From Actinomycetes bacterium (GTDB lineage: Bacteria > Actinomycetota > Acidimicrobiia > Acidimicrobiales > Ilumatobacteraceae): 64,000 bases of DNA. This document shows, piece after piece, positions 31,266 to 52,033 of this stretch; within the stretch, counting starts at the first letter, position 1; every line of letters starts with the position of its first letter. The stretch covers positions 12,120-76,119 of the forward strand of contig JANYCT010000095.1 of assembly GCA_025360105.1 (NCBI GenBank). Reading direction: 5' to 3'. A program made the translations under genes and the position numbers. Under the pieces are notes generated by a model, which was not told where the DNA came from, made no database searches, and saw only the letters and a program-made list of their open reading frames with translations.

Positions 31266-31305
31266 ATCACCCAGGATGACGCAAGCAGGATGAGCGGATG
31301 AGCGT

Positions 31306-31629
31306 GTGAGTTGTCTCTTCGTCTACGGAACACTGCTCCCGGGCGAGACTCGTTGGCACTTCCTCGAAGCGTTCGTCGTCGGTGACGGGCGCGCCGACTC
31401 GCTGCTGGGCCAACTCTTCGACACGGGCCTTGGGTATCCGGCGGCACGCGTGACGGGTGTTGATCACGCTGTTGACCCATTGTCCCGTCCGATCACTGGT
31501 GAGGGCATTCGTGCGTGGGTGTATGAGTATGGAGCCGATCCCAGCGACGACATCGAGTTGACGCGCATCGTCAGTGGCGATTGGTCGTCGCGCACTCTTG
31601 CGTCACAACCGGAGGGTGATCCGTGTTGA
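31306..31629 (+). CDS. Short gamma-glutamylcyclotransferase (AIG2/GGACT)-like protein
   Basis: 107 aa. N-terminal FVYGTLLPGE...LGQLFDTGLGYPAA and C-terminal AWVYEY match the family ends. The middle appears shortened. Confidence 0.5.
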   Translation: MSCLFVYGTLLPGETRWHFLEAFVVGDGRADSLLGQLFDTGLGYPAARVTGVDHAVDPLSRPITGEGIRAWVYEYGADPSDDIELTRIVSGDWSSRTLASQPEGDPC

Positions 31630-34600
31630 CAACCACAACCGACGTGCCAGAAGTGGCTGACGTGCAACATCTGTTGTTGCCGTACGTGTCGGATCTGCTC
31701 CTGCATTGGCCGCAGGATCGTGCGTGGCAGCAGCTCGAGGGCACGCTCGTCTCGGCCGATATCTCAGGTTTCACCGCGCTGTCCGAGCGGCTCGCTTCGC
31801 GTGGCCGTGAGGGCGCCGAAGAGTTGACCGCGCTCATCAACGACTGCTTCGAGGGCATGATTGAGAACTGTCATCGCAATGGTGGCGACATCGTGAAGTT
31901 TGGTGGTGATGCGCTCCTCGTGTGGTTCATGGGCGACTCCCACGCCCGCCGCGCGTGTCGCGCTGCCGTGGCCATGCGTCGCACGCTTCGTAACGAGCGG
32001 CGCACGTCGGATGGCAAGCTCGTGAAGCTCAAGGTGTCGATCGGTGCGCACAGCGATCTGCATACGTTTTTCATGGTCCGCAGCGGCCATTGCGAGCTCG
32101 TGGTCACCGGACCCGGCGTGACCCACACCGTCGATTGCGAGTCCGCGGCGTCGGCCGGCGAGATTCTGATCACGCATCAAACGGCAAAACTCCTGCCGGC
32201 GTCGTGGCTCGGCGAGGTGCGCCCAGAGGGCGTGATCGTTCGCCATGTGACTGCGGCCAAAGAGCGGTCGTCCTCCGACGCAACATCGACATCGACATCG
32301 ACATCGAGATCGAACGTGTCGCTTGCGTCGCCAACTCCTTCGGCCGCGGCGTTTATCCCCCCCGAGCAGCAGGCGCAGATCGTTGCCGGAGCCGTCAACG
32401 AACATCGACAGGTGGCAATCAGCTTTGTCGAGTTCTCGGGAACCGATGCCCTGATCGCTGAAGGCCAGATCGACACCCTCAGTGATCGACTTCAAACCTT
32501 CACCGATTCGGTTGCGGCCGCGTGCAGCCACTATGGGGCGTACTGGCTGGCTACCGACGTTTATCACGACGGTGGCAAGTTCATCCTCACGGCCGGTGTG
32601 CCGTTGTCGCTGGGTCAGGTCGAAGAGCGCATGTTGCGTGCGGTCCGTGACATCATCGATGCCGACCCGGGCATCAACCTGCGCGCCGGTATCAATCGCG
32701 GTTACGTGTTTGCCGGTGACCTGGGTTCAGATCGGCGTCGTACGTACACCACAATGGGCGACGCAGTGAACCTGTCGGCGCGGTTGATGTCGAAGGCAAC
32801 CTCGGGTGAGATCATTGTCAGTCGTCCCACGATGGAGTGGGCGTCGTCCCGCTTCGAGTACGCACCGCTCGAGCCGTTCTTCGTGAAGGGCAAGAGCGTG
32901 CCGATCTATGCGGGCCAACTCGGCCGCTGGCTCGGTCGCCAATCCGAACTCGATGGTGTCGATGTCGAGCTGTGTGGTCGTACCGACGAGCTCGCTCGGA
33001 TGCTCGCACTCGCCGACGGTGCAGCGCTGGGCCAGAGCTCGGTGGTGATGGTCACGGGCGAGCCGGGCATCGGCAAGAGCCGGCTTGCGGTCGAGGTGGC
33101 ACGCCAGCGACCCGACTTTGCGGTTGCCATCGCACGCTGTCAACCGTTCGACCGATTGTCCGCGTACTCCGTGACCGAACCTCTCATTCGCGCCATGCTC
33201 GGCATCGGCGCGGATGCAACGTCGACCGAAGCCGGCACCATGTTGGTCGAGTGGTTGATGAATCACGCTCCGACTCTGGTGCCCTTTGCCCCGTTGCTGG
33301 CCCTGACGGTCGGTGCCGATGTGGCATCCACCCGCGAAGCCGACGCGGTGATTCCCGAGTTCCGCCGCCTCCGTACGCTGCAATTGTTGGTCGAGATCGT
33401 GAACGCTTCGATCTCAGCGCCCACGATCGTGTTCATCGACGACATCAACCATGCCGACGACGCCACTCGGGAATTGGTCGAAGCGCTCGTATCGGGCGCC
33501 GGTCGGATCCCGTTGTTCATCATCGCGACGTCGGTGCCTGACGACACGCTCGCAGGCGAGCGCATCACGCTCGGTGGCCTCAACGAGCGCGAGGTGTCGT
33601 TGATGATCGACTCGCTCCTCGGTGATCGCGCGATCAGCGCAGCGACGGTCCGCAACCTCGTGCAACGATCCGATGGGAATCCCCTGTTCGTCACCGAACT
33701 GCTGAAGGTTTTGAGCGAGGATCCGCACGCAGCGATGCCATCGTCGTTGGAATCGCTGGTCGAGTCGCGTATCGACACGCTCGAGCCGGCCGATCGGCAA
33801 CTGCTTCGGTTCGCATCGGTACTCGGCAACGTTGTCGACATTCGCCTCCTTGCGCAGATGAGCGACGAATCGCTCGTGAGCCGGCAAGACCGTTGGGACC
33901 GGCTCGACCGTTTCCTCGAACGCGTTGGTCCAGGGGTGGTTCGTTTCCGTTACGACACCTTTCAGCGAGTTGTCTACGAGGGCCTGTCGTTCCGGGCGCG
34001 TCGTGGGGCGCACAGTCGGGTTGTCGAGCTCTTGGAAGGCTCACCCGACGAGGACGAGCGAGAACAGCTCGCGTTGCTTGCTTTCCACGCACATCGTGCC
34101 GGTGACGAATCGCGAACGTGGACATACAGCTGTGCGGCGGCAGCGGCAGCGGCAGAGGACGCGATGTTCGGCGAGGCGGCGCGTTTGTATGCGCTCGCGC
34201 TCGCGACGCATCGCCACGGTGCCACCGACGACGAGCTACGGGTCATCGCCGAGCGGGCAGGCGACGTGTACGAATCGGCTGGTCAGTTCGATAAGGCCGA
34301 GCATGCGCTGGGGCTGTCGTTACGTCACGCCACCGAGGGTCTCGATCAGGCACGCCTGTGGCGCAAGCGGGCCGAGGTGGCCGAGCGAACCGGCGACTAC
34401 GCCCGCGTGCAGCGACTGCTGGCACGCGCTGCCAAGGCACTGGCCGGTGTCCCATGGACCCAGGCAATCGGGGAGCATGCGCGTTGGGAGACCGCACAGA
34501 GCGCCTTTGCCCTTCGCCAATCACGACTCGAGGATGCGTGGAAGTACGCGACAGGGGCGTTTGCCTCGGCACAGCTCATCGAGGACTGGAAGACAGCGGC

Positions 34601-35435
34601 GCACGCTGCGCTCATGCTCGACAACATGGTCACCACGCTGCGCTGGGAGGGCACCATCGTGCAACGTCCCGATGTCGTGCAGCTCTATCAGCGCGCAAAG
34701 GATCCGATCGGTGAGGCGAAGTACCTCAGCAACCGCGCCGTCGATCACTACTTTGACGGCGAATGGCACAACGCGATCCGACTGCATCGCGAGTCATCCG
34801 AGCGATCGGCCGAATATGGCCACGTCGTGTCCGAGGCAACGGGCCTCAACAACATCGCCGAGATCCTCAGTGATCAGGGCCACTATGACGAAGCTCGCCA
34901 GATGCTGCGCGAGGCAAGTCGCACATGGCGATCCACCGGTTACGGAATCGGTATTGCGTTGGCCGAGGCAAATCTGGGTCGCCTCGCGACGCGCACCGGT
35001 CAGTACGAGGAGGCGCAGGCCATGCTCGAAGCGTCAGCACAACGGTTCGCAGAACTGGGTGCTGGCGGCTTTGTGGTGGAGGTTGCGCTGCGAATTGTCG
35101 ACAATGCCTTGCTGGCCGGTCGAACAGTGACCGAGGACATGTGGCCATCATCTGAAGAACTCGATCAGGACCCGACGTTGCAGGTGTACGCCAACCGATT
35201 GCGCGCGCTCCACGCCTTTGGGAGAGCAAGCAATGGAGCCGTCGCGCTCATCGATACGAGCATTGCGACCGCACGTTCGGCCGGGTTGCCCTTCGAGCTT
35301 GCCCTGTCGCTGCTCGCCCGGTCACGCATCGTGGTCGACGACGATGCGGCCCGCGAGGCGGCGACGTTGCTCGCCAGCCTCGATGTGGTGAACCCACCAC
35401 CATTCGCGGTTGTATCAAGTTCAGGTGAAATGTAG
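31623..35435 (+). CDS. Tandem class III nucleotidyl cyclase - AAA/STAND NTPase - TPR signalling protein
   Basis: 1270 aa. Cyclase domains at about aa 36-195 and 258-405, Walker A GEPGIGKS, Walker B IVFIDDINHADD, long helical/TPR C-terminus. No HTH at the C-terminus. Confidence 0.9.
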   Translation: MLTTTTDVPEVADVQHLLLPYVSDLLLHWPQDRAWQQLEGTLVSADISGFTALSERLASRGREGAEELTALINDCFEGMIENCHRNGGDIVKFGGDALLVWFMGDSHARRACRAAVAMRRTLRNERRTSDGKLVKLKVSIGAHSDLHTFFMVRSGHCELVVTGPGVTHTVDCESAASAGEILITHQTAKLLPASWLGEVRPEGVIVRHVTAAKERSSSDATSTSTSTSRSNVSLASPTPSAAAFIPPEQQAQIVAGAVNEHRQVAISFVEFSGTDALIAEGQIDTLSDRLQTFTDSVAAACSHYGAYWLATDVYHDGGKFILTAGVPLSLGQVEERMLRAVRDIIDADPGINLRAGINRGYVFAGDLGSDRRRTYTTMGDAVNLSARLMSKATSGEIIVSRPTMEWASSRFEYAPLEPFFVKGKSVPIYAGQLGRWLGRQSELDGVDVELCGRTDELARMLALADGAALGQSSVVMVTGEPGIGKSRLAVEVARQRPDFAVAIARCQPFDRLSAYSVTEPLIRAMLGIGADATSTEAGTMLVEWLMNHAPTLVPFAPLLALTVGADVASTREADAVIPEFRRLRTLQLLVEIVNASISAPTIVFIDDINHADDATRELVEALVSGAGRIPLFIIATSVPDDTLAGERITLGGLNEREVSLMIDSLLGDRAISAATVRNLVQRSDGNPLFVTELLKVLSEDPHAAMPSSLESLVESRIDTLEPADRQLLRFASVLGNVVDIRLLAQMSDESLVSRQDRWDRLDRFLERVGPGVVRFRYDTFQRVVYEGLSFRARRGAHSRVVELLEGSPDEDEREQLALLAFHAHRAGDESRTWTYSCAAAAAAAEDAMFGEAARLYALALATHRHGATDDELRVIAERAGDVYESAGQFDKAEHALGLSLRHATEGLDQARLWRKRAEVAERTGDYARVQRLLARAAKALAGVPWTQAIGEHARWETAQSAFALRQSRLEDAWKYATGAFASAQLIEDWKTAAHAALMLDNMVTTLRWEGTIVQRPDVVQLYQRAKDPIGEAKYLSNRAVDHYFDGEWHNAIRLHRESSERSAEYGHVVSEATGLNNIAEILSDQGHYDEARQMLREASRTWRSTGYGIGIALAEANLGRLATRTGQYEEAQAMLEASAQRFAELGAGGFVVEVALRIVDNALLAGRTVTEDMWPSSEELDQDPTLQVYANRLRALHAFGRASNGAVALIDTSIATARSAGLPFELALSLLARSRIVVDDDAAREAATLLASLDVVNPPPFAVVSSSGEM
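32283..32312 (+). repeat. Hexanucleotide microsatellite (ACATCG)x4 plus one imperfect unit
   Basis: Read directly at 32283-32306 (perfect) and 32307-32312 (AGATCG). Encodes TSTSTSTSRS in the linker between the two cyclase domains. Confidence 0.9.
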
Positions 35436-35542
35436 CCAGCACCCTGTTCAGACAGTGACAAGCGGAACTACTCTGCGTGCACTGCTGTTTAATCGGAACG
35501 GCGGGGGGATCTGGTCTGCAGCCAGAGGGAATCGGGTGTGTC

Positions 35543-38500
35543 GTGAGTCGTTCCGCATTTCGGAAGACGTGTGTATCTGTCGTCGCCATGTCGCTGTTGG
35601 GCGGCGTGCTCGTTGTGGGCGTGTCACCAGTTGTGCCCGCGCGCGCACTGGATCCGAACTATGTGATCGACTCCACCATCGATGCTCCCGATGCCGCACC
35701 CGGCGATGGCGTGTGCGCCAGCGCGAGCAATGGCTGCACCCTGCGGGCAGCGTTACAGCAGGCAGTTGCGGCCGGAGTGGACGCAACGATTACCGTGGAT
35801 TCGACTTTGTTGGCGACGGTACCCACCTTCGCTCTCGCAAGCGAGCTCATGGTTGCGGTGCCTGCAGGCACGACCATCACGCTGCAAGGCTCATCAACGA
35901 TCGTCGGGCGCCCCATCATCTCTGGTGGCGGCACACACCGGGTGTTCAATGTTGAAGGCCCCGGCGCGTTCCACATCGTTGGCTTTGAGATCACCGATGG
36001 CCAGGGTGCCATCATCGGGGCCGCCGGCACACCTCGTATTGATCCGACGACATCGACCGTGTACGAGCCCCAATCCGGCGGCTATCCCACCGATTCGGCT
36101 TGTGGACCCTCCAGCGCGCTGACCGGTATCTCGGTGCGGGTGAGCCTCGGCACCGGGTGGCCTTCGGCGTTTCGCCCGACGTGCACCGACGTGGTGATCG
36201 CCGGCAGTAGCTACACGCTCGGTGGCAGTCACCTCGGACCCTGGTTCCCCGATCGGCCCGCGGACGCCTTCGCCCTTCCGTCGACACCGGGCATTGCCGA
36301 CCAGCAGTGCCCGTCCGGCTCGGTGGCAACGGGTTTTGCGGGCCGATCGGGTTCGGCCGTCGACCGTGTCAAGTTGCGCTGCGCACCATTGCTGACCGAC
36401 GGAACCTTGGGGGCAGGAACCTATATCGGTGAGGTCGGCGACGATTTCATCGGCGACCCAAGCGGGCCGTCTCTAGAACGTGGTGGCAGCCCGTTCCCGC
36501 TGCATTCCTGTCCCGTCGGTGCCTTCGCGTCGGGGTTCACGGGTTTCTACGGCCTGAACTACAACTACGTGTACTCCCCCTACTATCCGGGCTATACCTA
36601 CACGGCGGAATCGTATATCCAGGGACTCGCGCTGACCTGCGCCAATTCCACCGATGCTCCCTCCATCACGCCGGGTAACGGTGGCGGCATTTTGGCCACT
36701 GGCGATCTCACACTCGACAAGGTGGCTGTGACCAACAACGCAACGGCGTCGGGCAACGGCGGTGGCGTGTATTCCAGCGCTGCACTCACCATCGTCAACA
36801 GCACCGTTTCCGGCAACGCAGCGGCCGGTGCAGGTGGCGGCGTCTATGCCGTTGGGTCGCTGTCGATCAACGATTCGACCATTCGTGACAACTCTGCCCA
36901 GGCCGCACCCATCGGGGGGGATTCACCCAAGGGTGGCGGCGTGTACATGGCGAATGAGAACTTCGACGTGGCCATGGCGGACACGGTCGTGTCGGGGAAC
37001 ACTGCGGCGTCCGACGGCGGTGGCCTGTCCATGGACGCGGCAGGTTTCACGATGGAGCGCTCTGCGATCACCTCGAACTCCGCGCCGAATGGAGAGGGCG
37101 GCGGTCTGTTCATGCCCTTCTTCGCGTCGACGGCTGCGTGCGGTGGTGAGTGTTCGGGATCGCTCGTCATGCGCAACGTCACCGTCGCTGGCAACGGTGC
37201 GCAGGGCGCCAGCGGATTGAAGATCAGTAACTTGAATCCTGTCGATGCCGCACTCACGAACGTGACTGTCACGAACAACGACAGCGTCGGTGGCTCAGCG
37301 GGGTTGAGCCTGAGCTATTGGGGGCACAAATCAATCGAAGACTCGATCGTGTCCGGCAATACCACTCCGTCGGAGAACAACGACTGCGACTATTTCTACT
37401 ATTACGGCAACGGCACGCCCAGTGTGATCTCCTCTGGCAACTGTTATGCGCAGGACCCCTCACCACAACTGAACGCCGATCCCGGGCTGAAGGCGTTGGG
37501 CAACTACGGCGGGCGCGTCAATGGTGCGGGCGACGTGATCCCCGTGACCCCGATCCCCGGCGACTCGAACGCAGCGGGCGCAGGTACGTGCCCAATGTCG
37601 GTTGACGCCCGTTCGCTTCCCCGGCCGGTTGCTTCGTGCGATCTCGGCGCCTTCGAGCTCACCCTCGCAGCCGGTGATGTCACCAATGTGCCGAATCTCG
37701 GCCAGCCGGTGATCCTGCCGTCGCTGAGGAGCGGTGCCAGTTCGGTGCCCATCACCGATATTCCTGCGTCGGCATTCCTTCCTGCCACCGGTAACGGCAG
37801 CGCAGATGCCACTGCTGGTGCCTCCACCGCACAGATTCGTGGTATCGCCCTCGGCGACACGGGGCTTTCGGCCGTGCAGTTGCGCCAGGTTTCATTGGGC
37901 GCCATTCCACTCGACTCAAAGGTGCTCGACTCGATCGCGCTCTCGCAGCTTCCGCTCACGTACTCCAGCTCCAGTGGCAACGGAACCGGCTGGCACGCCT
38001 ACCTTCTCGACGTCAACCTCACCGAACTGGCCGCACAGCCGCTCAACACCGTGTCGTTCGGCGAGGTGCTCGCAGCCACCAAGGATCTTGCGGTCGCGCA
38101 GCAGTTGAGCCTCGACCAGGTCGACTTCTCTGCGACCCCGCTGGGCTCGCTGCCTGTGGGCGCAATCGCCCTCGGCGCGGTGCCACTGTCAGCGCTTGTC
38201 TCGACTGATGGCTCACCGGTGGACTGGTGCGCCATCGTCGCCAAGTACTCCACCGCATCATGTGGTCCCGGCCAAGAGATCGATCCGACCACCGCCAGCC
38301 TTGTTTCCATCTCACTGCAGGGCGTTCCGTTGCGTCAGGTGCCGCTCAGCGCGATGCAGCTGCGCCAAGTAGATCTCACCCCGGCTCAGTTGCGTCAGGT
38401 ACCGCTGTACGGCGTTCCGTTGCGTCAGGTCGATATGGCCGCGACACAGTTGCGTCAGGTGCAGCTCCGTCAGGTGCAGCTCCGCCAAGTGCAGCTCCGC

Positions 38501-41500
38501 CAAGTGCAGTTGCGCCAGGTGAACCTGCAGGGTTCGCAGTTGCGCCAGGTGCAGTTGCGTCAGGTGAACTTGCAGGGTTCGCAGTTGCGCCAGGTGCAGT
38601 TGCGTCAGGTGATGCTCACGGGTTCACAGTTGCGTCAGGTGCAGTTGCGTCAGGTGCAGTTGCGCCAGATCGACATCAGCGCATCGCCGTTGGCCGGGGC
38701 ACTGCTCACCTCGTTCAGCAGCATTGGCTCGATCGTCGACTGCTCGGCGGTCGATTGTCTCAGCCCCACGCTCACGCTCGGCGATGTCGCTGGCCACTTC
38801 CTCCCCGGAGCGACACTCGGCGCGCTGCTCGACATGGCCCTTGCCAGTGTCAATTTCGGTGGCATCGGTGACATCACCGGCCCCGGTTTGGACACCGCCT
38901 TCGCCACTTTGACCCTGGGCGACATCCTCGATCTCCTGCTGGCCGACCCAACATTCCTCGACATGACGCTCGAGCAGTTGGGCGGACCCGACTTGCTCGC
39001 CTCGGTCACCTTCGGTGACATCGTGCCTGGCGCCTATGGCGACATCACGATCGGCGATGTCCTCTCGGCGCTGGCCGATGCCGTCCCCGGCGATCCGGGA
39101 TACGGCCTCACGCTCGGCGATCTCCTCGCCGGCATCCTGCCCCCATCGGATTTCCCGTGGCAGAACCTCGACCTCGCCACCGCGACGCCCGTATTGCAGG
39201 CGGCAACATTCCCGCAAGCCGAGAACTACAACGTCGATATCACCAGCACCCTGCCCGCGGGTACTCAGGTCACCGCCCACCTCAGTGTCCCGAAGGGATA
39301 CTTGATCAACCCGGCTTCGATTTCATTGCTCGACGGAGCGGCCGGCTCTCCTGAGCCGACCTCCACGCAGACGGTCGATGCGGTTACCGGCGTCACTACC
39401 GTCGATATCACGTTGTACCCGCGCGAGGGACTTTCGAAGCTCCGGTTCAGTGCTGTCTCGCCCGTTGACCTCGGGCAGACAGCCAGTTTCACCATCACGC
39501 TCGAGGCAGCTGACTTTGCTTCGTCGGCCACCGCTGGCCAGGAACCGTTCACCATCGTCGATGGTTCCGAACCCTCGAACGACAACCCGGCCTCCGCGCC
39601 GTTGGCCACTCCGGGCAACCTGTATCTGGGGCACATTCAGAATGCCTCTGATGTCGATTTCTTCCGTGTGCATCTCACGCAGGGTCAGAGGCTGTCGGCA
39701 TTCTTGTCGAACCTTCCGGCCGATTACGACCTGTTGCTGTTCGGTCCCGTGCCGGCGCGGCTGCGTGGTGTTGCGAACAAGTCGCTCACCCCCTCACCCG
39801 ACGGTGGCCTCAGTCTGATCAGTGCCGACAACGCCGTGAATGCCCAGGTTGGCGCCGACATCAACACGGCACCTCCTGCCGGGATGCAGTTGGTCAGTGT
39901 CTCGAGCCGACGCGGCACGGGCGACGAACGCATCGACACCGCTGCACTGCCAGCGGGCGACTACGCGATCAAAGTCATTGGCTACAACAGCGCGAGTAGT
40001 AATAAGCCATACAGCCTGCGCATTCGCATCAGTGGCAGCGCGGCTGGGGCAGCATGCTCGGCCGTCGATCCTGCGGCTCCAGCGACCGACGCGGTGCAGT
40101 CGTTGATCGATTCAGGCGCCACCACGATCACCCCCGACACCACCACCATCTTGCTCACCAACGTCGCCCGGGCGCAGCGTGCCTACGGCGGCAGCGACGC
40201 CACGGTCGTCGGTGCGCTGAATCGTTTCGTCACAACGGTGAACGCTGATCCTTCCAGCTACGCCGGCACGAGTGCCGCAGTGGTCACGCTCGACGACCTC
40301 ACGTCGTACGGAGCCTGGGATGGCGCACCTTGTGATCCAGCGGCGGCCAATGCTGTGGTCAGCGAGATCGGTGATCGCATCGATCTCCTCCGCAGCCAGT
40401 GGCCGAACATCAAGAACGTGGTGCTCGTCGGTGCCGACGATCAGATCCCGTTTGCTCGCGTGGCCGATGCGGTTCCGTCGAACAACGAGAGCGAATACGC
40501 CAGCACCTTTGCCGACAATTCGCCGCTGAAGTCGGCGCTGTCGTTGGGTTACATGCTCACCGACAACCCGTACGCAGTTGGCCATCCCATTGCCGTTGGC
40601 AGCAGGGAACTGTTCGTTCCCGACATCGCTGTGGGTCGCCTCGTGGAATCGGCCAACGACATCCAGACCGCGCTCGACAACTTCGTTGGTTTCAACGGTC
40701 ACCTCAACCCCACCACGGCCTTCAGCGCTGGCTACGACTTCCTCGCCGATGGCGCCACCGCCGTGGCCGACGCGATCAAGGGTGGCGGCATCGTCGATCC
40801 CGCCAACGTGAACACCGACCTAATCAGTGAAACGTGGAACCGTCAGCAACTGATCGATGCGCTCGTCGGTGCGACTCCGCCGGGCCTCGCATCGGTGAAC
40901 GCGCACTTCGATCACTATCGGGCGCTGCCTGCCGACCAGAATGCCCTCGGCCACCTCACCGATCCGTTCACGTTGACTGACGTGACGAAAGGTGCCCCGC
41001 TCAACGGTTCGGTGATCTTCAGTATGGGCTGCCATGCGGGTCTGTCCGTGTCTGATGCGTCAATCGGTGCCAACGACACGAGCATCTCGGCTGACTGGGC
41101 TCAAACCTTCGCCGGCGCCGGCGCCGACGTCTTCGTCGGCAACACGGGCTACGGATACGGCGATGACACAGTTGTCGGTGCCACCGAGGAACTGATGCAT
41201 CAGTTCGCCAAGCGACTCGATGGATCAATGACCATTGGCGACGCGATGGCATATGCCAAGCAGAAGTACACCGCCGATCTGGCCGTCGTGAGCCCCTTCG
41301 ACGAAAAGGTGGTCAGCGAGGTCGTGTTCTACGGCCTGCCGATGTACACCGTGGGTAAGGCCATCCCCCGGACTGCTCCGTTCGCTGCGCTCAATGTCGG
41401 TGCTGCCATCAACGATTCGACCGGACTCGATTCGACGATCCGGACCATCGATTTGCCGGTGAAGCTCACGAGTGGCCCGTCGAACCTACACCGCCAGGAC

Positions 41501-44500
41501 ACCACCAAGGGCTCGTTCTACGAGGTCAACGGTGACACGCAGACATCGCCGTATCAGCCGGTACAGCCGAGCCTTTCCATCGACGTCACGCAATCCGGTC
41601 GCACTGCGCGTGGGGCGCTCATCACCGAGTTGACCTCCCAAGACGACAAGCCGTTCGATCCCGTGTACATGACACCAATCGATGACTCCACCACCGCGAA
41701 CCCCGAGGCCAACGTTGCTGGCGCCGTGTTCCCATCGGTGTTGCAGACGGTCAATCACCTCGAAACAGCCGGCGGCCCTAGCGATCAGTTGGTGTTCATC
41801 CCCGGCCAGTTCCGTGGCGACCCGGACTCGCCCACGGGGTCGGGCACGCAACGGTTGTTCACCAATGCGACCGCCTTGGTCTACTACGCGCCCGACGGCA
41901 ACACCGATACCACGCCTCCGACAATTGTGTCGACGAGGTCGACGGTGCTCACCGGATCCGCCGCCTTCTCGGTGAACGCCTTTGATGAGTCGGGCATCAG
42001 CCGGGTCTATGTGCTGTACACCGATTCAGCTCACCCGGGTACGTGGTTCGGCGCCGACCTTGCGTCGGCCGGTGGAGATACCTATACAGGTATTGCCACG
42101 GCCCCGACCGGCGCCGAGACGATCGACTACATGGTCCAGGTCGTCGACAGTGCCGGCAACGTGTCGGTCAGCTCGAACAAGGGCGACAACTTTGTCGGCC
42201 GAAACAACCCCACTCCTGTGGTGCTCGTGGGCCCCAAGACCTACGACGGAACCACGAGCGCGACGGTGGCTTCGTGCACCTTGTATGACGCAGCCGGTCT
42301 TGTGGTTGCTGACCCTGGAGTGGGTTGTGAAGCCACGGCGACCTTCGCGTATGCCGGTGCGGGCGACATCGTGCCGGTGAACGTCGATGGGATCACACTG
42401 ACGGGCACGAACGCCGCGCTCTATGCATTGTCCTCGACGACGGCCACAACCTTTGGCTCGATCTCACCGGTTTCATTGTCGGTAAGTCCAACCGACACCA
42501 ACGTGATCTACGGGCATCCGGCCACCTATCCGTTCGTTGTGTCGGGTTTCGTGAATGGCGATACGGACGGTTCGGGTGTGAAGCCGGCAAAGGGCTTCGT
42601 AGCACCAGTGTGTTCGTCGTCCTACACCACGTCCACGCCAGTGGCAGATTCACCGGTGGAGATCTCGTGCAGTGGTGGCTCGGCCGATAACTACAGCTTT
42701 GACACGTACTACTTCGGATCGCTCACCATCTCGCAGGCCCCGGTGCACCCCGTGGTCGCAGTCCTCAACAAGGTTGCGGACGGCACCACCGATGCAACCG
42801 TGTCGTCGTGCACGTTGTACGACGACACGAATGTAGCGGTGTCCGACGCCAACGTCGGTTGCTCCGCTACGTCGGCATCCTTCGACTCTGTCGGTCCAGG
42901 TATTGGCATCGGTGTGACGGTCTCTGGAATCACGCTGTTTGGCGGCACCGCCGTCAACTACTCGTTGAATTCAGGCACGGCGTTCACGATGGCAAACATC
43001 ACACTGCACGATGATCTGCATGCCGTCGTCACCGTGGATGACAAGCCATACGACGGCGGCACCAACGCAACCGTGTCGTCGTGCACGGCGCTCGACATCA
43101 ACGATCTACCCGTCGTTGCTGTTGGCTGTGACGTCGGCAACGCCTCCTTCCAGAGCGCTGATGCAGGTATCGGCATTCCAGTGGATGTTTCGGGCATCAC
43201 ACTGACCGGCGCCAACGCTGCTGACTATTCGCTGGCCTCGGACACGGTGTCGGCGACAGCGTCGATCACTCCGGTTGTGCTCACGGTGACCCCGCAACCC
43301 ACCGATGTCATCTACGGCCGCACGGCGGCCTATCCGTTCGATGTGACGGGTTTCGTGAATGGCGAAACCGACGGGTCCGGCATCAAGCCGGCCAAGGGAT
43401 ACGTGGCCCCGGAGTGTTCTTCGGGTTACAAGACCACGTCAGACATTTCGGAGGCACCGTTTGATGTCTTCTGTGCACGCGGTACGGCTGACAACTACAC
43501 CTTTGATGTGGCTGCACATTCGGTGTTGACGATGCTGCGGGCGCAAGTGCACGCAGTGGTCGTGGCGAACAACAAGCCCTATGACGGCACGACAGATGCA
43601 ACGTTGTTGTCGTGCACGCTGCTGGACGCCGGTAACGAGGTTGTGGTCGGTGCCGGTTGTGATGCGACGGTTTCCTTCACGAGTGCCTATGCGGGTCTCC
43701 ATGTTCCCGTGTCGGTGGATCTGGTCACGCTGAATGGCCCCGATTCGGGGAACTATGTACTGCAGTCGTCGTCGGTTGATCCAGCAGCCATTGGTCAGGT
43801 CACCCTCACGGTGACTCCGGTTGCGAAGTCGGTGACGTATGGTGATGCTCCGCCGGTGTACACGTTTGGTGTGTCCGGGTTTATCACGGGTGAGGGTGCG
43901 GCCAACGCGGCGGGGTATGTGGCGCCGTCGTGCACGTCGTTGTACACGGCAGCGACACCGGTGGCTTCGTCTCCGTCGATTACGTGTAGTGGTGGCAGCG
44001 CGAGCAATTATTCGTTCTCGTATGGCACGGCTGCGGTCACGGTGACGCCAGCCAGCCTGCTGGTGGATTACACCGGTCCATTGACCGCAACGTCGGCAAC
44101 GGCATCAGCGACGGTTACCTTGACGGCAACGGTCACGGGGCTCTGCGCCAATGGGGCTGCCGTGACCATGACGGTGACGGACGATGGCACCGGCGTCGTG
44201 CTCGGCTCGTACCCACTGGTCGCATCCGCGAGCGGTTTGGTGACGAAGTCTGGCGTGGTGCTGCCGGTGGGCAGTGTGTACGCCATCGACGTCGTCGCCG
44301 CCGATTCCGCAAACTGCATCGGGGCCAGCGACACTAGCTTCCTGGATGTGACCCCGGTGACGCCTCCGACCGGAAACTCTCACGGTTCGGGCTCGTACAT
44401 GGTGGGCCTCACGAAGGTCAACTTCGGGTTCTACGGATTCACCAAAGCGGTCAAGGGCGGCTTCACCTCGGGCGGCTACGTGGACTGGAAGGTATCCCGC

Positions 44501-44830
44501 AACGTCCGGTTCACCGGTGCGATCTCTGGATACACCGCAGCGTGCCCCGCGGGCACCGCGACACCTGCGGGCACGAAGTGCTCGTATATGACCGGTACCG
44601 GAAGCTTGTTCACCTGGGTGCCCGGCAGGGTTCGCGGGGGGTCGTGGGTGAGGACATCTACGGGTGTGGCATTCCAGTTGACGGTTGCCGATGGCGGCGT
44701 GGTCACACCAAGGATTGGGCCACCGACCCGTAACCCGGACTACATCCGCATGAATTTCCCGGTGCCGGTGGTGGTCGGCGAAACGACCACGCTGGTGGTC
44801 ACATCGTCCGGGAACATCGGAGTGCAGTAA
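35543..44830 (+). CDS. Giant secreted multidomain protein (about 3,095 aa): CSLREA-like motif, right-handed beta-helix repeats, pentapeptide array, PPC domain, clan-CD-like peptidase domain, YDG/MBG-like modules
   Basis: ORF 35477-44830. I prefer GTG 35543, which yields a Sec-type signal peptide VSRSAFRKTCVSVVAMSLLGGVLVVGVSPVVPARA/LD. Domain calls come from motifs read in the translation (see findings). Confidence 0.9.
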   Translation: MSRSAFRKTCVSVVAMSLLGGVLVVGVSPVVPARALDPNYVIDSTIDAPDAAPGDGVCASASNGCTLRAALQQAVAAGVDATITVDSTLLATVPTFALASELMVAVPAGTTITLQGSSTIVGRPIISGGGTHRVFNVEGPGAFHIVGFEITDGQGAIIGAAGTPRIDPTTSTVYEPQSGGYPTDSACGPSSALTGISVRVSLGTGWPSAFRPTCTDVVIAGSSYTLGGSHLGPWFPDRPADAFALPSTPGIADQQCPSGSVATGFAGRSGSAVDRVKLRCAPLLTDGTLGAGTYIGEVGDDFIGDPSGPSLERGGSPFPLHSCPVGAFASGFTGFYGLNYNYVYSPYYPGYTYTAESYIQGLALTCANSTDAPSITPGNGGGILATGDLTLDKVAVTNNATASGNGGGVYSSAALTIVNSTVSGNAAAGAGGGVYAVGSLSINDSTIRDNSAQAAPIGGDSPKGGGVYMANENFDVAMADTVVSGNTAASDGGGLSMDAAGFTMERSAITSNSAPNGEGGGLFMPFFASTAACGGECSGSLVMRNVTVAGNGAQGASGLKISNLNPVDAALTNVTVTNNDSVGGSAGLSLSYWGHKSIEDSIVSGNTTPSENNDCDYFYYYGNGTPSVISSGNCYAQDPSPQLNADPGLKALGNYGGRVNGAGDVIPVTPIPGDSNAAGAGTCPMSVDARSLPRPVASCDLGAFELTLAAGDVTNVPNLGQPVILPSLRSGASSVPITDIPASAFLPATGNGSADATAGASTAQIRGIALGDTGLSAVQLRQVSLGAIPLDSKVLDSIALSQLPLTYSSSSGNGTGWHAYLLDVNLTELAAQPLNTVSFGEVLAATKDLAVAQQLSLDQVDFSATPLGSLPVGAIALGAVPLSALVSTDGSPVDWCAIVAKYSTASCGPGQEIDPTTASLVSISLQGVPLRQVPLSAMQLRQVDLTPAQLRQVPLYGVPLRQVDMAATQLRQVQLRQVQLRQVQLRQVQLRQVNLQGSQLRQVQLRQVNLQGSQLRQVQLRQVMLTGSQLRQVQLRQVQLRQIDISASPLAGALLTSFSSIGSIVDCSAVDCLSPTLTLGDVAGHFLPGATLGALLDMALASVNFGGIGDITGPGLDTAFATLTLGDILDLLLADPTFLDMTLEQLGGPDLLASVTFGDIVPGAYGDITIGDVLSALADAVPGDPGYGLTLGDLLAGILPPSDFPWQNLDLATATPVLQAATFPQAENYNVDITSTLPAGTQVTAHLSVPKGYLINPASISLLDGAAGSPEPTSTQTVDAVTGVTTVDITLYPREGLSKLRFSAVSPVDLGQTASFTITLEAADFASSATAGQEPFTIVDGSEPSNDNPASAPLATPGNLYLGHIQNASDVDFFRVHLTQGQRLSAFLSNLPADYDLLLFGPVPARLRGVANKSLTPSPDGGLSLISADNAVNAQVGADINTAPPAGMQLVSVSSRRGTGDERIDTAALPAGDYAIKVIGYNSASSNKPYSLRIRISGSAAGAACSAVDPAAPATDAVQSLIDSGATTITPDTTTILLTNVARAQRAYGGSDATVVGALNRFVTTVNADPSSYAGTSAAVVTLDDLTSYGAWDGAPCDPAAANAVVSEIGDRIDLLRSQWPNIKNVVLVGADDQIPFARVADAVPSNNESEYASTFADNSPLKSALSLGYMLTDNPYAVGHPIAVGSRELFVPDIAVGRLVESANDIQTALDNFVGFNGHLNPTTAFSAGYDFLADGATAVADAIKGGGIVDPANVNTDLISETWNRQQLIDALVGATPPGLASVNAHFDHYRALPADQNALGHLTDPFTLTDVTKGAPLNGSVIFSMGCHAGLSVSDASIGANDTSISADWAQTFAGAGADVFVGNTGYGYGDDTVVGATEELMHQFAKRLDGSMTIGDAMAYAKQKYTADLAVVSPFDEKVVSEVVFYGLPMYTVGKAIPRTAPFAALNVGAAINDSTGLDSTIRTIDLPVKLTSGPSNLHRQDTTKGSFYEVNGDTQTSPYQPVQPSLSIDVTQSGRTARGALITELTSQDDKPFDPVYMTPIDDSTTANPEANVAGAVFPSVLQTVNHLETAGGPSDQLVFIPGQFRGDPDSPTGSGTQRLFTNATALVYYAPDGNTDTTPPTIVSTRSTVLTGSAAFSVNAFDESGISRVYVLYTDSAHPGTWFGADLASAGGDTYTGIATAPTGAETIDYMVQVVDSAGNVSVSSNKGDNFVGRNNPTPVVLVGPKTYDGTTSATVASCTLYDAAGLVVADPGVGCEATATFAYAGAGDIVPVNVDGITLTGTNAALYALSSTTATTFGSISPVSLSVSPTDTNVIYGHPATYPFVVSGFVNGDTDGSGVKPAKGFVAPVCSSSYTTSTPVADSPVEISCSGGSADNYSFDTYYFGSLTISQAPVHPVVAVLNKVADGTTDATVSSCTLYDDTNVAVSDANVGCSATSASFDSVGPGIGIGVTVSGITLFGGTAVNYSLNSGTAFTMANITLHDDLHAVVTVDDKPYDGGTNATVSSCTALDINDLPVVAVGCDVGNASFQSADAGIGIPVDVSGITLTGANAADYSLASDTVSATASITPVVLTVTPQPTDVIYGRTAAYPFDVTGFVNGETDGSGIKPAKGYVAPECSSGYKTTSDISEAPFDVFCARGTADNYTFDVAAHSVLTMLRAQVHAVVVANNKPYDGTTDATLLSCTLLDAGNEVVVGAGCDATVSFTSAYAGLHVPVSVDLVTLNGPDSGNYVLQSSSVDPAAIGQVTLTVTPVAKSVTYGDAPPVYTFGVSGFITGEGAANAAGYVAPSCTSLYTAATPVASSPSITCSGGSASNYSFSYGTAAVTVTPASLLVDYTGPLTATSATASATVTLTATVTGLCANGAAVTMTVTDDGTGVVLGSYPLVASASGLVTKSGVVLPVGSVYAIDVVAADSANCIGASDTSFLDVTPVTPPTGNSHGSGSYMVGLTKVNFGFYGFTKAVKGGFTSGGYVDWKVSRNVRFTGAISGYTAACPAGTATPAGTKCSYMTGTGSLFTWVPGRVRGGSWVRTSTGVAFQLTVADGGVVTPRIGPPTRNPDYIRMNFPVPVVVGETTTLVVTSSGNIGVQ
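38312..38716 (+). repeat. 27 consecutive in-frame pentapeptide units (13 exact QLRQV), a 15-nt-period coding repeat
   Basis: Read directly. Leu/Ile/Met occupies every fifth residue from SLQGV to LLTSF. The DNA units use varied synonymous codons. Confidence 0.9.
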
Positions 44831-44835
44831 GCAGT

Positions 44836-44871
44836 TGCGTGCTGATCGTGGGGGGTCACGATCAGCACGCA
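44836..44871 (+). terminator. Perfect 15-bp stem / 6-nt loop hairpin between the giant gene and the ABC genes (attenuator or terminator candidate)
   Basis: TGCGTGCTGATCGTG-GGGGGT-CACGATCAGCACGCA, starting 6 nt after the stop codon. There is no clean U-tract (CATGGTGTTATC follows). Confidence 0.5.
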
Positions 44872-44908
44872 CATGGTGTTATCGGGGACCGACCAAGGGG
44901 GAGAGACC

Positions 44909-45937
44909 ATGCTCAGAGCGGCATTACGCGATTTGCAATGGCGCAAGAAGAGATTCGTGATTGCGATGCTCGGGGTCGCGCTCGTCTTCGCAATGGGTTT
45001 GATCATGACCGGTCTCACCGAGTCGTTCTCGCTCGAGGTGGATCGCACGTTGAACGCGATCGGCGCCGAGGCTTGGTTGGTCTCCGACAGTGCGACCGGC
45101 CCCTTCACATCGTTCTCGCCGGTGCCCACCGCACTGGTCACCGACTCGGAGGCGTCGCCGGCATTGGTGTTGCGCCAGAGCATCGATGACAACGGCAAGA
45201 TCGTCGACGTCGTCGTGATTGGAGCACAACCCGGCCGACTGGGGTCGGTGACTGCGTCGAGCGGCAAGAGCGTTGCGGGTCCCGGTGAGGCCGTTGTGGA
45301 CAACGACTTCACCCTTGCCGGTCTCGGTCAGTCGTTCTCCATCGGTGGGAAGAGCTTCAAGGTGGTCGGCACCGTGTCGGGGCAACGCCTCTACGCAGGA
45401 TTACCAATGGTCTACATCGCGCTCTCCGAAGCCCAAAAAGTGTCGCTGCAGGGTCAGCCGTACGCGTCGACGTTCATCTACGCAAAAATGCCCACAACTA
45501 TCCCGACGGGGTTGAAGGCGATGTCGAACGCCGAGGTGCGAACCGACGTGCTGCGCCCATTGCAAAACGCAATGGACTCGATCGCGCTCGTGCGTGTGTT
45601 GCTGTGGATCGTGGCTGCCACGATCATCGGTTCGGTGCTGTACCTACAGGCGATGGAACGCACACGCGACTTCGCGGTGTTTAAGGCAACGGGTACCTCC
45701 ACTGCCGCGATCGGTGTGGGACTCGCGCTCCAGGCGGTGGTGCTTTCGCTGGCCGCCGCTGCGTTGGCCGCGGTCTTCGCCGCCTTGCTGGCACCGACGT
45801 TCCCCATGCACGTAGAGATACCGACGAGTGCATACGAGCTCCTTCCCGTGGTCACGGTGGTGGTTGGTCTGCTCGCCAGCTTGATCGCACTCCGCAAGAC
45901 CGCAACCGTCCAACCCGCTGCTGCGTTCGGAGGCTGA
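44909..45937 (+). CDS. FtsX/MacB-type ABC transporter permease
   Basis: ORF 44873-45937. Start ATG 44909 (AAGGGGGAGAG upstream). MLRAALRDLQWRKKRFVIAMLGV..., a large extracytoplasmic loop after TM1, and three C-terminal TM helices. Confidence 0.88.
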   Translation: MLRAALRDLQWRKKRFVIAMLGVALVFAMGLIMTGLTESFSLEVDRTLNAIGAEAWLVSDSATGPFTSFSPVPTALVTDSEASPALVLRQSIDDNGKIVDVVVIGAQPGRLGSVTASSGKSVAGPGEAVVDNDFTLAGLGQSFSIGGKSFKVVGTVSGQRLYAGLPMVYIALSEAQKVSLQGQPYASTFIYAKMPTTIPTGLKAMSNAEVRTDVLRPLQNAMDSIALVRVLLWIVAATIIGSVLYLQAMERTRDFAVFKATGTSTAAIGVGLALQAVVLSLAAAALAAVFAALLAPTFPMHVEIPTSAYELLPVVTVVVGLLASLIALRKTATVQPAAAFGG

Positions 45938-45938
45938 G

Positions 45939-46928
45939 ATGTCACAACCCGGAGCCGATCTCCATATCAAGGACCTCACAGTCGAGTTCAGCAAGGGCGA
46001 CTACACGGTGCGCCCCCTCGACAACATGAGTGTCACCGTGAAAGCCGGTTCGCTGGCGCTGCTGCTGGGGCCGTCGGGCTGCGGTAAGACCACCTTGCTG
46101 TCGTGTCTTGCAGCGATCCTCAAACCTACGTCGGGCACGATCACCTATGGCGACAAGGACATCACGGCGTTGAGCGGCAAGGCCCTCACCGATCACCGAC
46201 GACACGGTGTCGGTGTGGTCTTCCAGGCGTTCAACCTGGTGCCGAGCCTGAACAGCATCGAGAACGTTGCGGTACCCATGCGATCGGCCGGCGTGAAGGC
46301 GCGTGCAGCAAAGGCAAAGTCGATCGAGTTGCTCGAGGGAGTTGGTCTCGGTGAGCGCTTGACGCACAAGCCGAACAGCCTCAGCGGAGGTCAGCAGCAG
46401 CGCGTTGCCATCGCTCGCGCGCTCGCGCTCGATGCGCCACTGGTGCTCGCCGATGAGCCGACCGCTCATCTCGACTACATCCAGGTCGAGGGCGTGCTGC
46501 GTCTCATTCGCCGTCTCACCGATGGCGGGCGCGTGGTGGTGGTGTCGACTCACGACGATCGCATGTTGCCCCTCGCCGATCAGATCATCGAGATGCGCCC
46601 CGACTTCTTGCCCCAGAGCGACGCTGCTCCCGTACAGGTCACCCTCGTTGCCGGTCAACACCTTTTCAATCAGGGCGATCCGAGCGATCTCATCTACATG
46701 GTCGAGGATGGCCAGGTCGATGCCGTGCAGGATCTCGGCGAAGGCGAGATCGTGTTGGCCACGATGGGCCCCGGTGAGCACCTCGGCGAGATGGGACCGC
46801 TGTTTGGTCTGCGACGATCAGCGACAGTGCGCGCCCGCACGGACGCAACACTCACCGGCTACACCGTGAAGGCATTCCGTGATCTGGTTGGCGCTGAACG
46901 GCTGCCCTCGCTGATACGCGGCCGATAG
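45939..46928 (+). CDS. ABC transporter ATP-binding protein fused to a C-terminal cyclic-nucleotide-binding domain
   Basis: 329 aa. Walker A GPSGCGKTT, signature LSGGQQQRVAIARA, Walker B LVLADEPT. From about aa 232: ...LFNQGDPSDLIYMVEDGQV...GEHLGEMGPLFGLRRSATVRA (phosphate-binding cassette). GGAGG 5 nt upstream. Starts 1 nt after the permease stop. Confidence 0.9.
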   Translation: MSQPGADLHIKDLTVEFSKGDYTVRPLDNMSVTVKAGSLALLLGPSGCGKTTLLSCLAAILKPTSGTITYGDKDITALSGKALTDHRRHGVGVVFQAFNLVPSLNSIENVAVPMRSAGVKARAAKAKSIELLEGVGLGERLTHKPNSLSGGQQQRVAIARALALDAPLVLADEPTAHLDYIQVEGVLRLIRRLTDGGRVVVVSTHDDRMLPLADQIIEMRPDFLPQSDAAPVQVTLVAGQHLFNQGDPSDLIYMVEDGQVDAVQDLGEGEIVLATMGPGEHLGEMGPLFGLRRSATVRARTDATLTGYTVKAFRDLVGAERLPSLIRGR

Positions 46929-47004
46929 CTACTCCTCACCACCGGGTGACGTGTGAGCCGTCGACGCGCGATACTGGAGCGACCCTCCACGTCAGGAACA
47001 TGTC

Positions 47005-47421
47005 ATGAACGAGATCATTGTCGGAGTCGATGAAAGCGCTACAGCCCACAAGGCTGCCGTCGAGGCTTCCGAACTGGCGTCGATGACCAACCGCCCCTTG
47101 CACGTGGTGATGGCGTTGTCGCGCGGCTCGGTGCAGCAGGTGCGTAGTGGATCAGAGACCTGGATCCACGATCCGATCACCCATGGCGAGCAGGCCCTTG
47201 CGGCGCTCGTTGGCGAGTTGGCGTGCACGGCGCCGGTTACGTATTCGGTGGTGATGAAAGATCCGGCGAAAGCGCTCTGCGATGAGGCCGCACGGCTCGA
47301 CGCGTGGATGATCGTGGTCGGTAACAAGCGGGTGCAGGGGGCTGCGCGCGTGTTGGGCTCGATTGCCAACGACGTGGCCAAGACGGCGCCGTGCAATGTG
47401 CTGATCGTGCACACCACCTAA
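47005..47421 (+). CDS. Universal stress protein family
   Basis: 138 aa. IIVGVDESATAHKAA... and ...MIVVGNKRVQGAARVLGSIANDVAKTAPCNVLIVH. Confidence 0.85.
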   Translation: MNEIIVGVDESATAHKAAVEASELASMTNRPLHVVMALSRGSVQQVRSGSETWIHDPITHGEQALAALVGELACTAPVTYSVVMKDPAKALCDEAARLDAWMIVVGNKRVQGAARVLGSIANDVAKTAPCNVLIVHTT

Positions 47422-51969: not shown

Positions 51970-52033
51970 TTCCTACCGAACTCACACCAGGAACCGACCG
52001 AGGGTGCTGCGCTGCCGGGTATGGTTCGCCCAC

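Follow-up and report, generated by a model that had tools for sequence, protein, structure and literature searches.

We describe here a region of DNA in which a nucleotide cyclase, a giant secreted protein and an ATP-binding cassette (ABC) transporter with a cyclic nucleotide (cNMP)-binding domain are encoded one after another. It lies at positions 31306–47421 of a 64,000-nucleotide stretch (the window) of contig JANYCT010000095.1, from an actinomycete of the family Ilumatobacteraceae (assembly GCA_025360105.1); the names that its homologues carry point to the same family, in the class Acidimicrobiia. An earlier note on this DNA, made from the sequence alone, had taken the six genes of the region for a single module. 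In our analysis they are not a fixed six-gene unit; the region is better described as two separately conserved units, and we lean, without great confidence, to the view that these are most likely connected through cyclic AMP (cAMP). Unit A (31623–44830) consists of the cyclase, which is fused to a STAND-type NTPase and a TPR region, and the giant protein. Unit B (44909–46928) consists of an FtsX/MacB-type permease and an ABC ATPase that ends in a cNMP-binding domain. Each of these components is of a known kind: the cyclase-STAND protein resembles soluble adenylyl cyclase (sAC) and Rv0386, the transporter is of the Rv0072/73 type, and the giant protein carries a C25 peptidase. What appears to be new is the near-obligate operon of a cyclase-STAND gene and a giant C25 gene, together with its recurrent cNMP-reader neighbours; no description of the cyclase-STAND and C25 combination was found in the literature.

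The cyclase and the giant gene form a near-obligate, tightly coupled pair. All six of the cyclase homologues that were sampled (37–54% identity) directly adjoin a gene for a giant protein of 2,100–3,520 aa, and these six neighbours are 30–39% identical to residues 1065–2247 of the giant protein in the window. When the question is approached from the other side, through 83 loci with a homologue of this giant core, the cyclase is present in 48–49 of them, and in eight of the nine whose sequence extends 4.2 kb or more to each side of the core gene. The order of the two genes varies, the giant gene being found on either side; they often overlap or lie within ~100 nt of each other, and they probably form a co-transcribed pair. 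An all-against-all clustering of the open reading frames (ORFs) of the 83 loci gave no third universally conserved gene beside the pair, except for genes of cNMP-binding proteins.

The cyclase protein begins with two cyclase domains (Pfam Guanylate_cyc twice, E 1e-21), which are followed by an NTPase (AAA_16, 1e-18) and a TPR region (TPR_12, 2e-17). No DNA-binding or helix–turn–helix (HTH) domain was found in it by Pfam, which agrees with the tandem class III cyclase, NTPase and TPR protein without DNA-binding output that the earlier note had described. Its N-terminal 440 aa match both catalytic domains of human ADCY10; the phmmer match to the second of these, C2, spans query residues 338–390, and CyaB was matched as well. 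The conservation of catalytic and Walker residues was scored over 41 homologues. The first domain keeps the two metal-binding aspartates, Asp46 in DISGFT and Asp96 in GGDALL (each in 41/41), and Lys92 (38/41), which aligns with the conserved lysine of ADCY10 C1. The second domain keeps the transition-state residues Asn383 and Arg387 in GDAVNLSARL (each in 41/41). The residues of the NTPase are kept to a similar degree, K485 and D612 in all 41 homologues and D607 in 39. C1 and C2 are predicted to form a pseudo-heterodimer that has one active site, with the STAND NTPase and the TPR sensor behind it, which is the architecture of full-length sAC; the product of the cyclase would be cAMP. More than 2,900 homologues have the same length (~1,260 aa) and the same architecture. 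NCBIfam gave only partial matches to the TOMM kinase/cyclase and AfsR models, far below the cut-offs.

Full-length sAC is described as C1–C2 plus a predicted STAND/P-loop region, and a 2025 study identified no regulator specific to this isoform (PMC12802110). The window protein resembles it in the tandem C1–C2 followed by a STAND-type P-loop NTPase, and in the conserved Asp pair of C1 and the Asn/Arg of C2. It differs in being a bacterial protein of 1,270 aa with a C-terminal sensor that is clearly of the TPR type, in which no heme or autoinhibitory regions were identified, and in having a near-obligate giant secreted neighbour gene that has no counterpart in animals. A second point of comparison is offered by the Mycobacterium tuberculosis cyclases of the Rv0386/Rv1358/Rv2488c type, which are composed of a cyclase, an ATPase, TPR repeats and a LuxR-type HTH. 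These share with the window protein the fusion of a class III cyclase to an AAA_16/STAND NTPase and TPR, and also the phylum Actinomycetota, whereas the window protein has two cyclase domains and lacks the DNA-binding output.

The other partner in unit A, the giant protein, runs from a signal peptide through a beta-helix-like N-terminus and a run of QLRQV pentapeptides to a core with the C25 domain, and ends in YDG/MBG repeats (Pfam Pentapeptide, Peptidase_C25, four YDG and two MBG_2 matches). The secreted, peptidase-like protein of about 3,095 aa that the earlier note had seen here is thus borne out, both by the Sec-type signal peptide and by the Peptidase_C25 match. An N-terminal signal peptide is found in most full-length members of the family. 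What the family has in common is the core, which is 30–43% identical over ~1,100 aa in the 83 loci; a homologous pentapeptide repeat region is found in 57 of them. The N- and C-terminal parts of the protein are not conserved among these loci, and the YDG/MBG_2 region is variable, with a C-terminal homologue in one locus. The members of the family range from 1.4 to 4.3 kaa in size, and their heads vary, with PD40/NHL propellers, lectin, delta-60 and RTX modules among them and the beta-helix-like N-terminus in the window protein. Relatives of the core number 61 in the protein database and 453 in the JGI metagenome collection, mainly from Actinomycetota. Many members (among P0242–P0295) end in a ~30-aa motif, KTxKSWAGSCRxLxVxLxDGTxHxAxFxFK, which one source names "PxKF domain-containing"; the window protein does not have this C-terminus, and has the YDG/MBG repeats there instead.

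The His (NAHFDH, core H746) and the Cys (FSMGCHAG, core C788) of the C25 domain are invariant in a 26-sequence alignment, and judged by these residues the peptidase is predicted to be catalytically intact. The core was modelled with AlphaFold2 (pLDDT 79.7), and the best PDB fold match of the model is PorU (6za2; Foldseek, E 4.8e-8), at ~11% sequence identity and with a low global TM-score of 0.15–0.17; in the model, collagen-binding-domain and Ig-like sandwiches surround the C25 domain. The likeness to the C25 peptidases, such as the gingipains and PorU, therefore lies in a Pfam match above the gathering score, the invariant His/Cys dyad and the fold match. The differences are the actinobacterial host, the setting of the domain in proteins of 1.4–4.3 kaa with variable propeller, lectin, beta-helix and Ig modules, and the near-obligate pairing with a cytoplasmic cyclase-STAND gene. 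To our knowledge, type IX secretion belongs to the Bacteroidota and is not expected in an actinobacterium; Pfam found no type IX C-terminal domain in the giant protein, although no search aimed at the components of that system was made. A looser likeness, in concept only, is to the Lap system, which comprises the c-di-GMP (cyclic di-GMP) receptor LapD, the protease LapG and the giant adhesin LapA. Both bring together, in neighbouring genes, a nucleotide second messenger, a giant surface protein and the activity of a cysteine protease. However, Pfam identified no LapD-like receptor, BTLCP protease or type I secretion domain in the six window proteins, the messenger here would be a cNMP and not c-di-GMP, the giant protein contains the protease within itself, and the host is a monoderm actinobacterium.

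Unit B is a type VII (MacB/FtsEX-like) ABC transporter that is conserved independently of unit A. Hydropathy and Pfam place the first transmembrane segment (TM1) of the permease at residues 14–39, followed by an extracytoplasmic domain at ~40–220 (~180 aa, MacB_PCD) and then TM2–4, and its gene lies 1 nt from that of the ATPase. The ATPase combines ABC_tran (2.5e-34) with a cNMP_binding domain (8.6e-20, residues 235–317). The C-terminal cNMP domain noted earlier passes the PF00027 profile, with its phosphate-binding cassette GEMGPLFGLRRSA intact, and the cassette, in the form GEMGPLFGLxR[ST]A, is kept in 112 of 118 homologues. The ATPase would be cAMP-gated; no description of a cNMP-gated MacB transporter was found in the literature. 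The fusion has more than 100 full-length homologues (57–97% identity), and in 83 of 84 loci, from Acidimicrobiia and Mycobacteriaceae, an FtsX-type permease gene is directly upstream. The mycobacterial homologues (57–63% identity; Mycobacterium and Mycolicibacterium) have the same FtsX pairing and no such giant gene within 10 kb. As for the co-localisation across genomes that the earlier note had in mind, it holds for the cyclase and the giant gene, but the ABC-cNMP gene is usually far from both. In a number of loci (L014, L017–L021, L023 and L026, at ~8450–8920 on the minus strand), a divergent gene for a ~140-aa stand-alone cNMP-binding protein lies immediately upstream of the FtsX/ABC-cNMP pair, an arrangement common in Acidimicrobiales loci.

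In its architecture unit B appears to match M. tuberculosis Rv0072/73 and Rv2563/64, with an FtsX/MacB_PCD permease gene and, immediately behind it, the gene for an ABC ATPase that ends in a PF00027 domain, a likeness drawn via the mycobacterial homologues and the literature. A review treats the two mycobacterial transporters as MacB-like or type VII, as non-essential and as uncertain in function (PMC7761784), and the PF00027 domain has been noted in Rv2564 and Rv2565 (PMC4886424). Their genes are annotated as glutamine transporters, and differ from the window pair in that the latter stands downstream of a cyclase–giant unit. The earlier note knew of no described system of this composition, which stands for the pairing in unit A but not for unit B with its documented mycobacterial likenesses. 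In locus L168 (6630–10993), a cNMP-NTE_Ploop-patatin gene lies directly upstream of FtsX/ABC-cNMP, a trio which we take to be the same as Rv2563–Rv2565. Compared with FtsEX, which acts with EnvC, PcsB or RipC, and with MacB, the window transporter has the same kind of FtsX permease, in which an extracytoplasmic domain separates the first of four TM helices from the second, and a nucleotide-binding domain whose best NCBIfam matches are FtsE, DevA, MacB and LolD. It differs in that all these matches are below the equivalog cut-offs, in the extra cNMP-binding domain of the ATPase, and in that no coiled-coil or hydrolase partner was identified for it. The coordinates of all features are collected in Table 1.

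Table 1. Genes, domains and other features of the region, in window coordinates
Feature	Position	Strand	Basis and remarks
GGACT/AIG2-like ORF, 107 aa	31306–31629	+	Pfam GGACT
Cyclase-STAND-TPR protein, 1,270 aa	31623–35435	+	Pfam; 7-nt overlap with the GGACT-like ORF
C1-like cyclase domain	31689–32180	+	phmmer to human ADCY10 C1, query residues 23–186, E ~4e-15
C2-like cyclase domain	32400–32897	+	Pfam, residues 260–425; PDB matches CyaB and ADCY10 C2
STAND-type P-loop NTPase (AAA_16)	32967–33524	+	Walker A GEPGIGKS, Walker B VFIDD...D
TPR sensor region	34353–35039	+	Pfam TPR_12, TPR_14 and others; residues 911–1139
Giant secreted protein, 3,095 aa from GTG 35543	35543–44830	+	ORF from 35477 would give 3,117 aa
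Sec-type signal peptide	35543–35647	+	Read from sequence: MSRSAFRK, hydrophobic stretch, PARA|LD
Pentapeptide/decapeptide repeat run (QLRQV...)	38309–38674	+	Pfam Pentapeptide_4, E 3e-17
Conserved family core, giant residues 1065–2247	38669–42217	+	Beta-sandwich/PPC-like, C25 and Ig-like domains
Peptidase_C25 (clan CD) domain	40259–41281	+	PF01364, E 3e-8, 33.7 bits (cut-off 23)
YDG/MBG_2 repeat region, adhesin-type stalk	42194–44056	+	Pfam YDG E 3e-30, MBG_2 E 4e-14
Stem-loop, perfect 16-bp inverted repeat	44836–44871	+	Directly 3' of the giant stop codon, before ftsX
FtsX/MacB-type permease, 342 aa	44909–45937	+	Pfam FtsX and MacB_PCD; ORF opens at 44873
ABC ATPase-cNMP fusion	45939–46928	+	Pfam ABC_tran and cNMP_binding
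CAP-type cNMP-binding domain	46641–46889	+	PF00027, 71 bits (cut-off 27.5); phosphate-binding cassette GEMGPLFGLRRSA
Universal stress protein (USP), 138 aa	47005–47421	+	Pfam Usp

The case for a connection between the two units comes from the neighbours of unit A. Proteins with a cNMP-binding domain are the only further recurrent class of neighbour in the 83 loci. Such readers occur in 18 loci, always immediately adjacent to the pair, and at 17 of the 98 visible module ends a reader is encoded within 700 bp, an enrichment with a binomial P of ~2e-16 even if 1% of all genes are assumed to be readers, in a count that near-duplicate loci inflate. The architectures are diverse and include MFS-cNMP, SulP-STAS-cNMP, CRP, cNMP-patatin and stand-alone domains as well as FtsX with ABC-cNMP (L159). 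These observations support a reader that is facultative and interchangeable, the one in the window being a MacB-type ABC transporter. The wiring of a cNMP writer to a cNMP reader that had been proposed for this DNA is therefore upheld as far as the enrichment of readers beside the pair is concerned, but not for the window type of reader, which is found in one of the 83 loci. In the whole 64 kb there is a single cNMP domain, that of the ABC ATPase; since unit B is the only reader within this distance and immediately follows unit A, the signal of the cyclase is probably received by it locally.

The same three kinds of gene, FtsX/ABC-cNMP, STAND cyclase and secreted peptidase, are brought together in three or four non-homologous gene orders (the window, L016, L159 and L073/L082). 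The transporter is upstream of the giant gene in L159, and in L016 it is convergent with the cyclase and a C25-core gene of ~1,700 aa. In L073 (861–10966) and the syntenic L082, a cyclase-STAND-TPR gene is followed on one strand by genes for a secreted S53 sedolisin (Pro-kuma_activ and S8), a TIG-domain protein, FtsX and ABC-cNMP, with two stand-alone cNMP-binding genes next on the opposite strand. This layout is analogous to that of the window, but with a non-homologous peptidase. In L083, FtsX/ABC-cNMP is divergent from the cyclase, and MFS-cNMP, USP and another cNMP gene are nearby. The cyclase and C25-core genes of L016 (11000–19842, minus strand) are broken into overlapping ORFs, probably by frameshift errors of a long-read metagenome-assembled genome and not as pseudogenes.

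Some of the history of the region can be read from its closest relative, L001 (assembly GCA_043753895.1), which runs colinear with the window to either side of the region, at ~84% nucleotide identity. The shared upstream flank contains GNAT, CCA/poly(A) polymerase, PAS-GGDEF-EAL, methyltransferase and DUF5318 genes, and the shared downstream flank FtsX, ABC-cNMP, USP, PfkB, an APH-M23-aminotransferase gene and rpsF-ssb-rpsR-rplI-dnaB. Between the two, window positions 31280–44880 are replaced by 223 bp. A relic of 58 bp (L001 8786–8843) corresponds to window positions 35399–35456, which are the 3' end of the cyclase gene and the cyclase–giant intergenic region, with a local alignment score of 37 against a background of 18.1 ± 1.9 and a background maximum of 23. 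It follows that the two units were already adjacent in the ancestor and that the cyclase and giant genes were lost by deletion in the sister lineage; the relic shows what are most probably two deletions in L001 and not an insertion in the window. An origin of the 13.6-kb segment as a mobile element or insertion was considered and rejected on the uniform GC content, the lack of tRNA and Rfam matches and this relic.

It is worth looking closely at the junction between the two units. The stem-loop directly behind the giant gene has a predicted stability of −34.4 kcal/mol (z −5.2; none of 200 shuffles was equally stable) and is terminator- or attenuator-like, with a weak U tract, because of which a simple terminator scan missed it. 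The folding test gave no significant RNA structure in the cyclase–giant intergenic region. What is spacer upstream of ftsX in the sister genome is giant gene in the window, so expression of ftsX would here depend on read-through or on a promoter within the 3' end of the giant gene.

Several observations weigh against a functional link between units A and B. With so stable a hairpin between the giant gene and ftsX, their co-transcription is doubtful. The sister lineage kept FtsX (93% amino-acid identity), ABC-cNMP (97%) and USP (91%), and a transporter that is kept after the loss of the cyclase and the giant protein must have a function independent of unit A. In about 75 of the 84 loci, unit B has neither a cyclase nor a giant gene with it. 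Within 10 kb of the ABC-cNMP gene, a cyclase-STAND homologue is found in five of the 84 loci and a C25-core gene in one; conversely, FtsX/ABC-cNMP is found in one of the 83 giant-core loci, and none of the six loci sampled from the cyclase side has a cNMP gene within 10 kb. The ABC-cNMP relatives at 83–84%, 76% and 71% identity sit in unrelated contexts. Finally, some of the loci that were counted are related (for example L096/L098, L100/L108 and L138/L139) and so not phylogenetically independent, which inflates the counts.

One could conclude from this that the pair and the transporter operon have nothing to do with each other functionally, and that their adjacency is a historical accident in one lineage. 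Such a coincidence would fit with two units that are independent in most genomes, with a sister lineage that deleted one and left the other unaffected, and with the terminator-like hairpin between them. In addition, cNMP-binding genes cluster with one another in Acidimicrobiia anyway, and because they do so around the transporter as well, the flanks of the transporter loci are no clean background for the density of such genes. What an accident does not explain is that readers adjoin the pair at a rate far above any plausible background (17/98 ends), that three or four unrelated gene orders unite the same functions, and that the cyclase has the sole cNMP-binding protein of the 64 kb for a neighbour, which is just the layout expected of a writer and its reader. 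We consider coincidence rather unlikely, and prefer the two units connected through cAMP.

A connection of a more direct sort was the one proposed in the earlier note, in which the STAND cyclase produces a cNMP that gates the MacB/FtsEX-type motor, and the extracytoplasmic domain of the motor mechanically activates, processes or releases the giant protein, as FtsEX does with EnvC, PcsB or RipC. The order of the window genes on one strand (cyclase, giant, FtsX, ABC-cNMP) is what this model would lead one to expect. The same logic is seen in L073/L082, where the S53 peptidase and the TIG protein stand between the cyclase and FtsX/ABC-cNMP; the transporter abuts the C25-core gene in L159 and L016, and FtsE, MacB and LolD are among the closest curated families of the ATPase, whose permease has a MacB_PCD domain. 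Yet more than 95% of the cyclase–giant pairs have no FtsX/ABC-cNMP nearby, and the usual readers, MFS, SulP, CRP and stand-alone cNMP proteins, are none of them able to transmit force. The transporter has outlived the giant protein in the sister lineage, where it is under strong constraint, it is conserved in mycobacteria that have no such giant gene within 10 kb of it, and the hairpin stands between the giant gene and ftsX. In the window the motor may act mechanically on the giant protein itself, but such action is not conserved, and as an account of the region we judge this model unlikely.

If, as we prefer, the two units are connected through cAMP, the region might work as follows. Binding of a ligand by the TPR region would lead to nucleotide-dependent oligomerisation of the STAND module and so switch on cAMP synthesis. 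The giant protein would be exported by the Sec route, with a C25 cysteine peptidase in its core and variable ends that would serve as binding or adhesin modules. Binding of cAMP to the cNMP domain of the ATPase would then modulate its activity, and hence the action of the extracytoplasmic domain of the permease. The giant protein would belong to this circuit as its extracellular arm: it may be a co-regulated effector, or it may supply the cue to which the TPR region responds; the link between a TPR sensor and an exported protein may lie in co-regulation, in sensing of the pre-protein or in sensing of a product of the peptidase.

A bolder form of the same idea, which we put forward only tentatively and hold to be rather unlikely, is that the cyclase is a dedicated cytoplasmic sensor of the giant protein, responding to the unexported pre-protein or to a peptide or ligand generated by the C25 peptidase, and passing the signal through cAMP to interchangeable readers (MacB-type ABC, MFS, SulP, CRP). 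If true, this would be an unrecognised outside-in/inside-out circuit for giant surface proteins, with a logic like that of Lap and no shared components, and it would give the STAND/TPR half of the sAC-type cyclases its first natural ligand context. For the regulation of sAC through this half, the near-obligate giant partner gene of the bacterial homologues is a natural candidate cue. The findings also bear on Rv0072/73 and Rv2563/64, for which, in place of the annotated glutamine import, the recurrent neighbourhood of a STAND cyclase and a secreted peptidase suggests cAMP-controlled functions in the envelope or on exoproteins. More generally, a widespread family of secreted C25/PorU-like proteins of 1.4–4.3 kaa, to which a single metagenome collection contributes more than 450 relatives, appears to be tied into second-messenger signalling, and if the link holds it would be a cAMP-based counterpart to the control of giant adhesins by c-di-GMP.

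A quite different use of the same parts would be anti-phage defence of the Pycsar or Avs type, in which the STAND NTPase senses infection, the cyclase makes a cNMP, and membrane effectors that bind the cNMP kill or arrest the cell. The fusion of a STAND NTPase to a cyclase effector would suit this purpose, the variable and often membrane-embedded readers recall the diversity of Pycsar effectors, and the region is an indel between close relatives. As in Pycsar, there is a class III-type cyclase together with effectors that have cNMP-binding domains, and weak matches to the PycC and cNMP-binding Pycsar effector models were obtained. These matches cover only short, single-domain stretches; no PADLOC model matched beyond them, and none matched the giant, FtsX, USP or GGACT proteins, on which grounds assignment to a catalogued defence system was rejected. 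Nor do the STAND-TPR fusion and the tandem sAC-like cyclase domains fit Pycsar. The constant partner is a Sec-secreted, adhesin- and peptidase-like giant protein, which has no role in the known logic of abortive infection. The region is flanked by housekeeping genes (rpsF-ssb-rpsR-rplI-dnaB, CCA/poly(A) polymerase) and by no defence island; its base composition is uniform, and in those flanks that were examined mobile-element genes were not noticed. The defence-type readout, which had been raised as an alternative in the earlier note, thus seems to us very improbable.

The remaining two genes of the region are not part of either unit. The GGACT-like ORF matches its Pfam family with an E of 6.7e-8 over profile positions 1–48 only, and none of the 83 giant-core loci has a GGACT homologue; it was rejected as a member of the module in which it had been counted, and is a lineage-specific passenger outside the conserved system. 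The USP, which had been suggested as a cAMP-binding member by comparison with the mycobacterial USP Rv1636, is a clear match to PF00582 (E 1e-20), but it reads GNKRVQGAARVLGS, which does not match the canonical nucleotide-binding motif G-x2-G-x9-G-[ST]. Its co-occurrence is sporadic, being seen only in the sister genome (L001, L002, L005), in L083 and in L092. On both counts it is doubtful as a cAMP-binding member; it is at most weakly associated, as a possible accessory.

ORF calling in the 64-kb window confirmed the basic description of the region: six ORFs at the coordinates given before, all on the plus strand, with the 7-nt overlap at the GGACT-like gene. Pfam confirmed all of the domain calls, and the motifs GEPGIGKS, VFIDDINHADD and GEMGPLFGLRRSATVRA are all present in the sequence. 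The start codons chosen before are also the better ones, GTG 35543 for the giant gene, as it yields the Sec-type signal peptide and 3,095 aa, and ATG 44909 for ftsX, by alignment to the L001 orthologue. The GC content is uniform across the region, in which the tRNA and Rfam searches gave no matches and a scan with promoter consensus sequences found no sigma-70-type sites.

A few features of the flanking DNA may be mentioned. A PAS-PAS-GGDEF-EAL protein of 1,044 aa is encoded at 26988–30122, 1.2 kb upstream of the region, and is kept in the sister genome; an enzyme of c-di-GMP metabolism is therefore a neighbour of the cAMP genes. Between the two lie a methyltransferase ORF of 355 aa (30138–31205, minus strand), probably over-extended since the orthologue has 240 aa, and, overlapping it, a DUF5318-like gene (30792–31279, plus strand) whose L001 homologue is 73% identical. 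Downstream, a second indel of ~2.3 kb (51944–54223) with FMN_bind (52666–53397) and ApbE (53318–54199) genes is absent from L001, where 6 bp lie between the flanks. Next to it, at 48886–51969 on the minus strand, is a gene for an unusual three-domain fusion of 1,027 aa, composed of an APH phosphotransferase, a Peptidase_M23 domain and a class III aminotransferase, of which the sister genome has a version of 1,004 aa.

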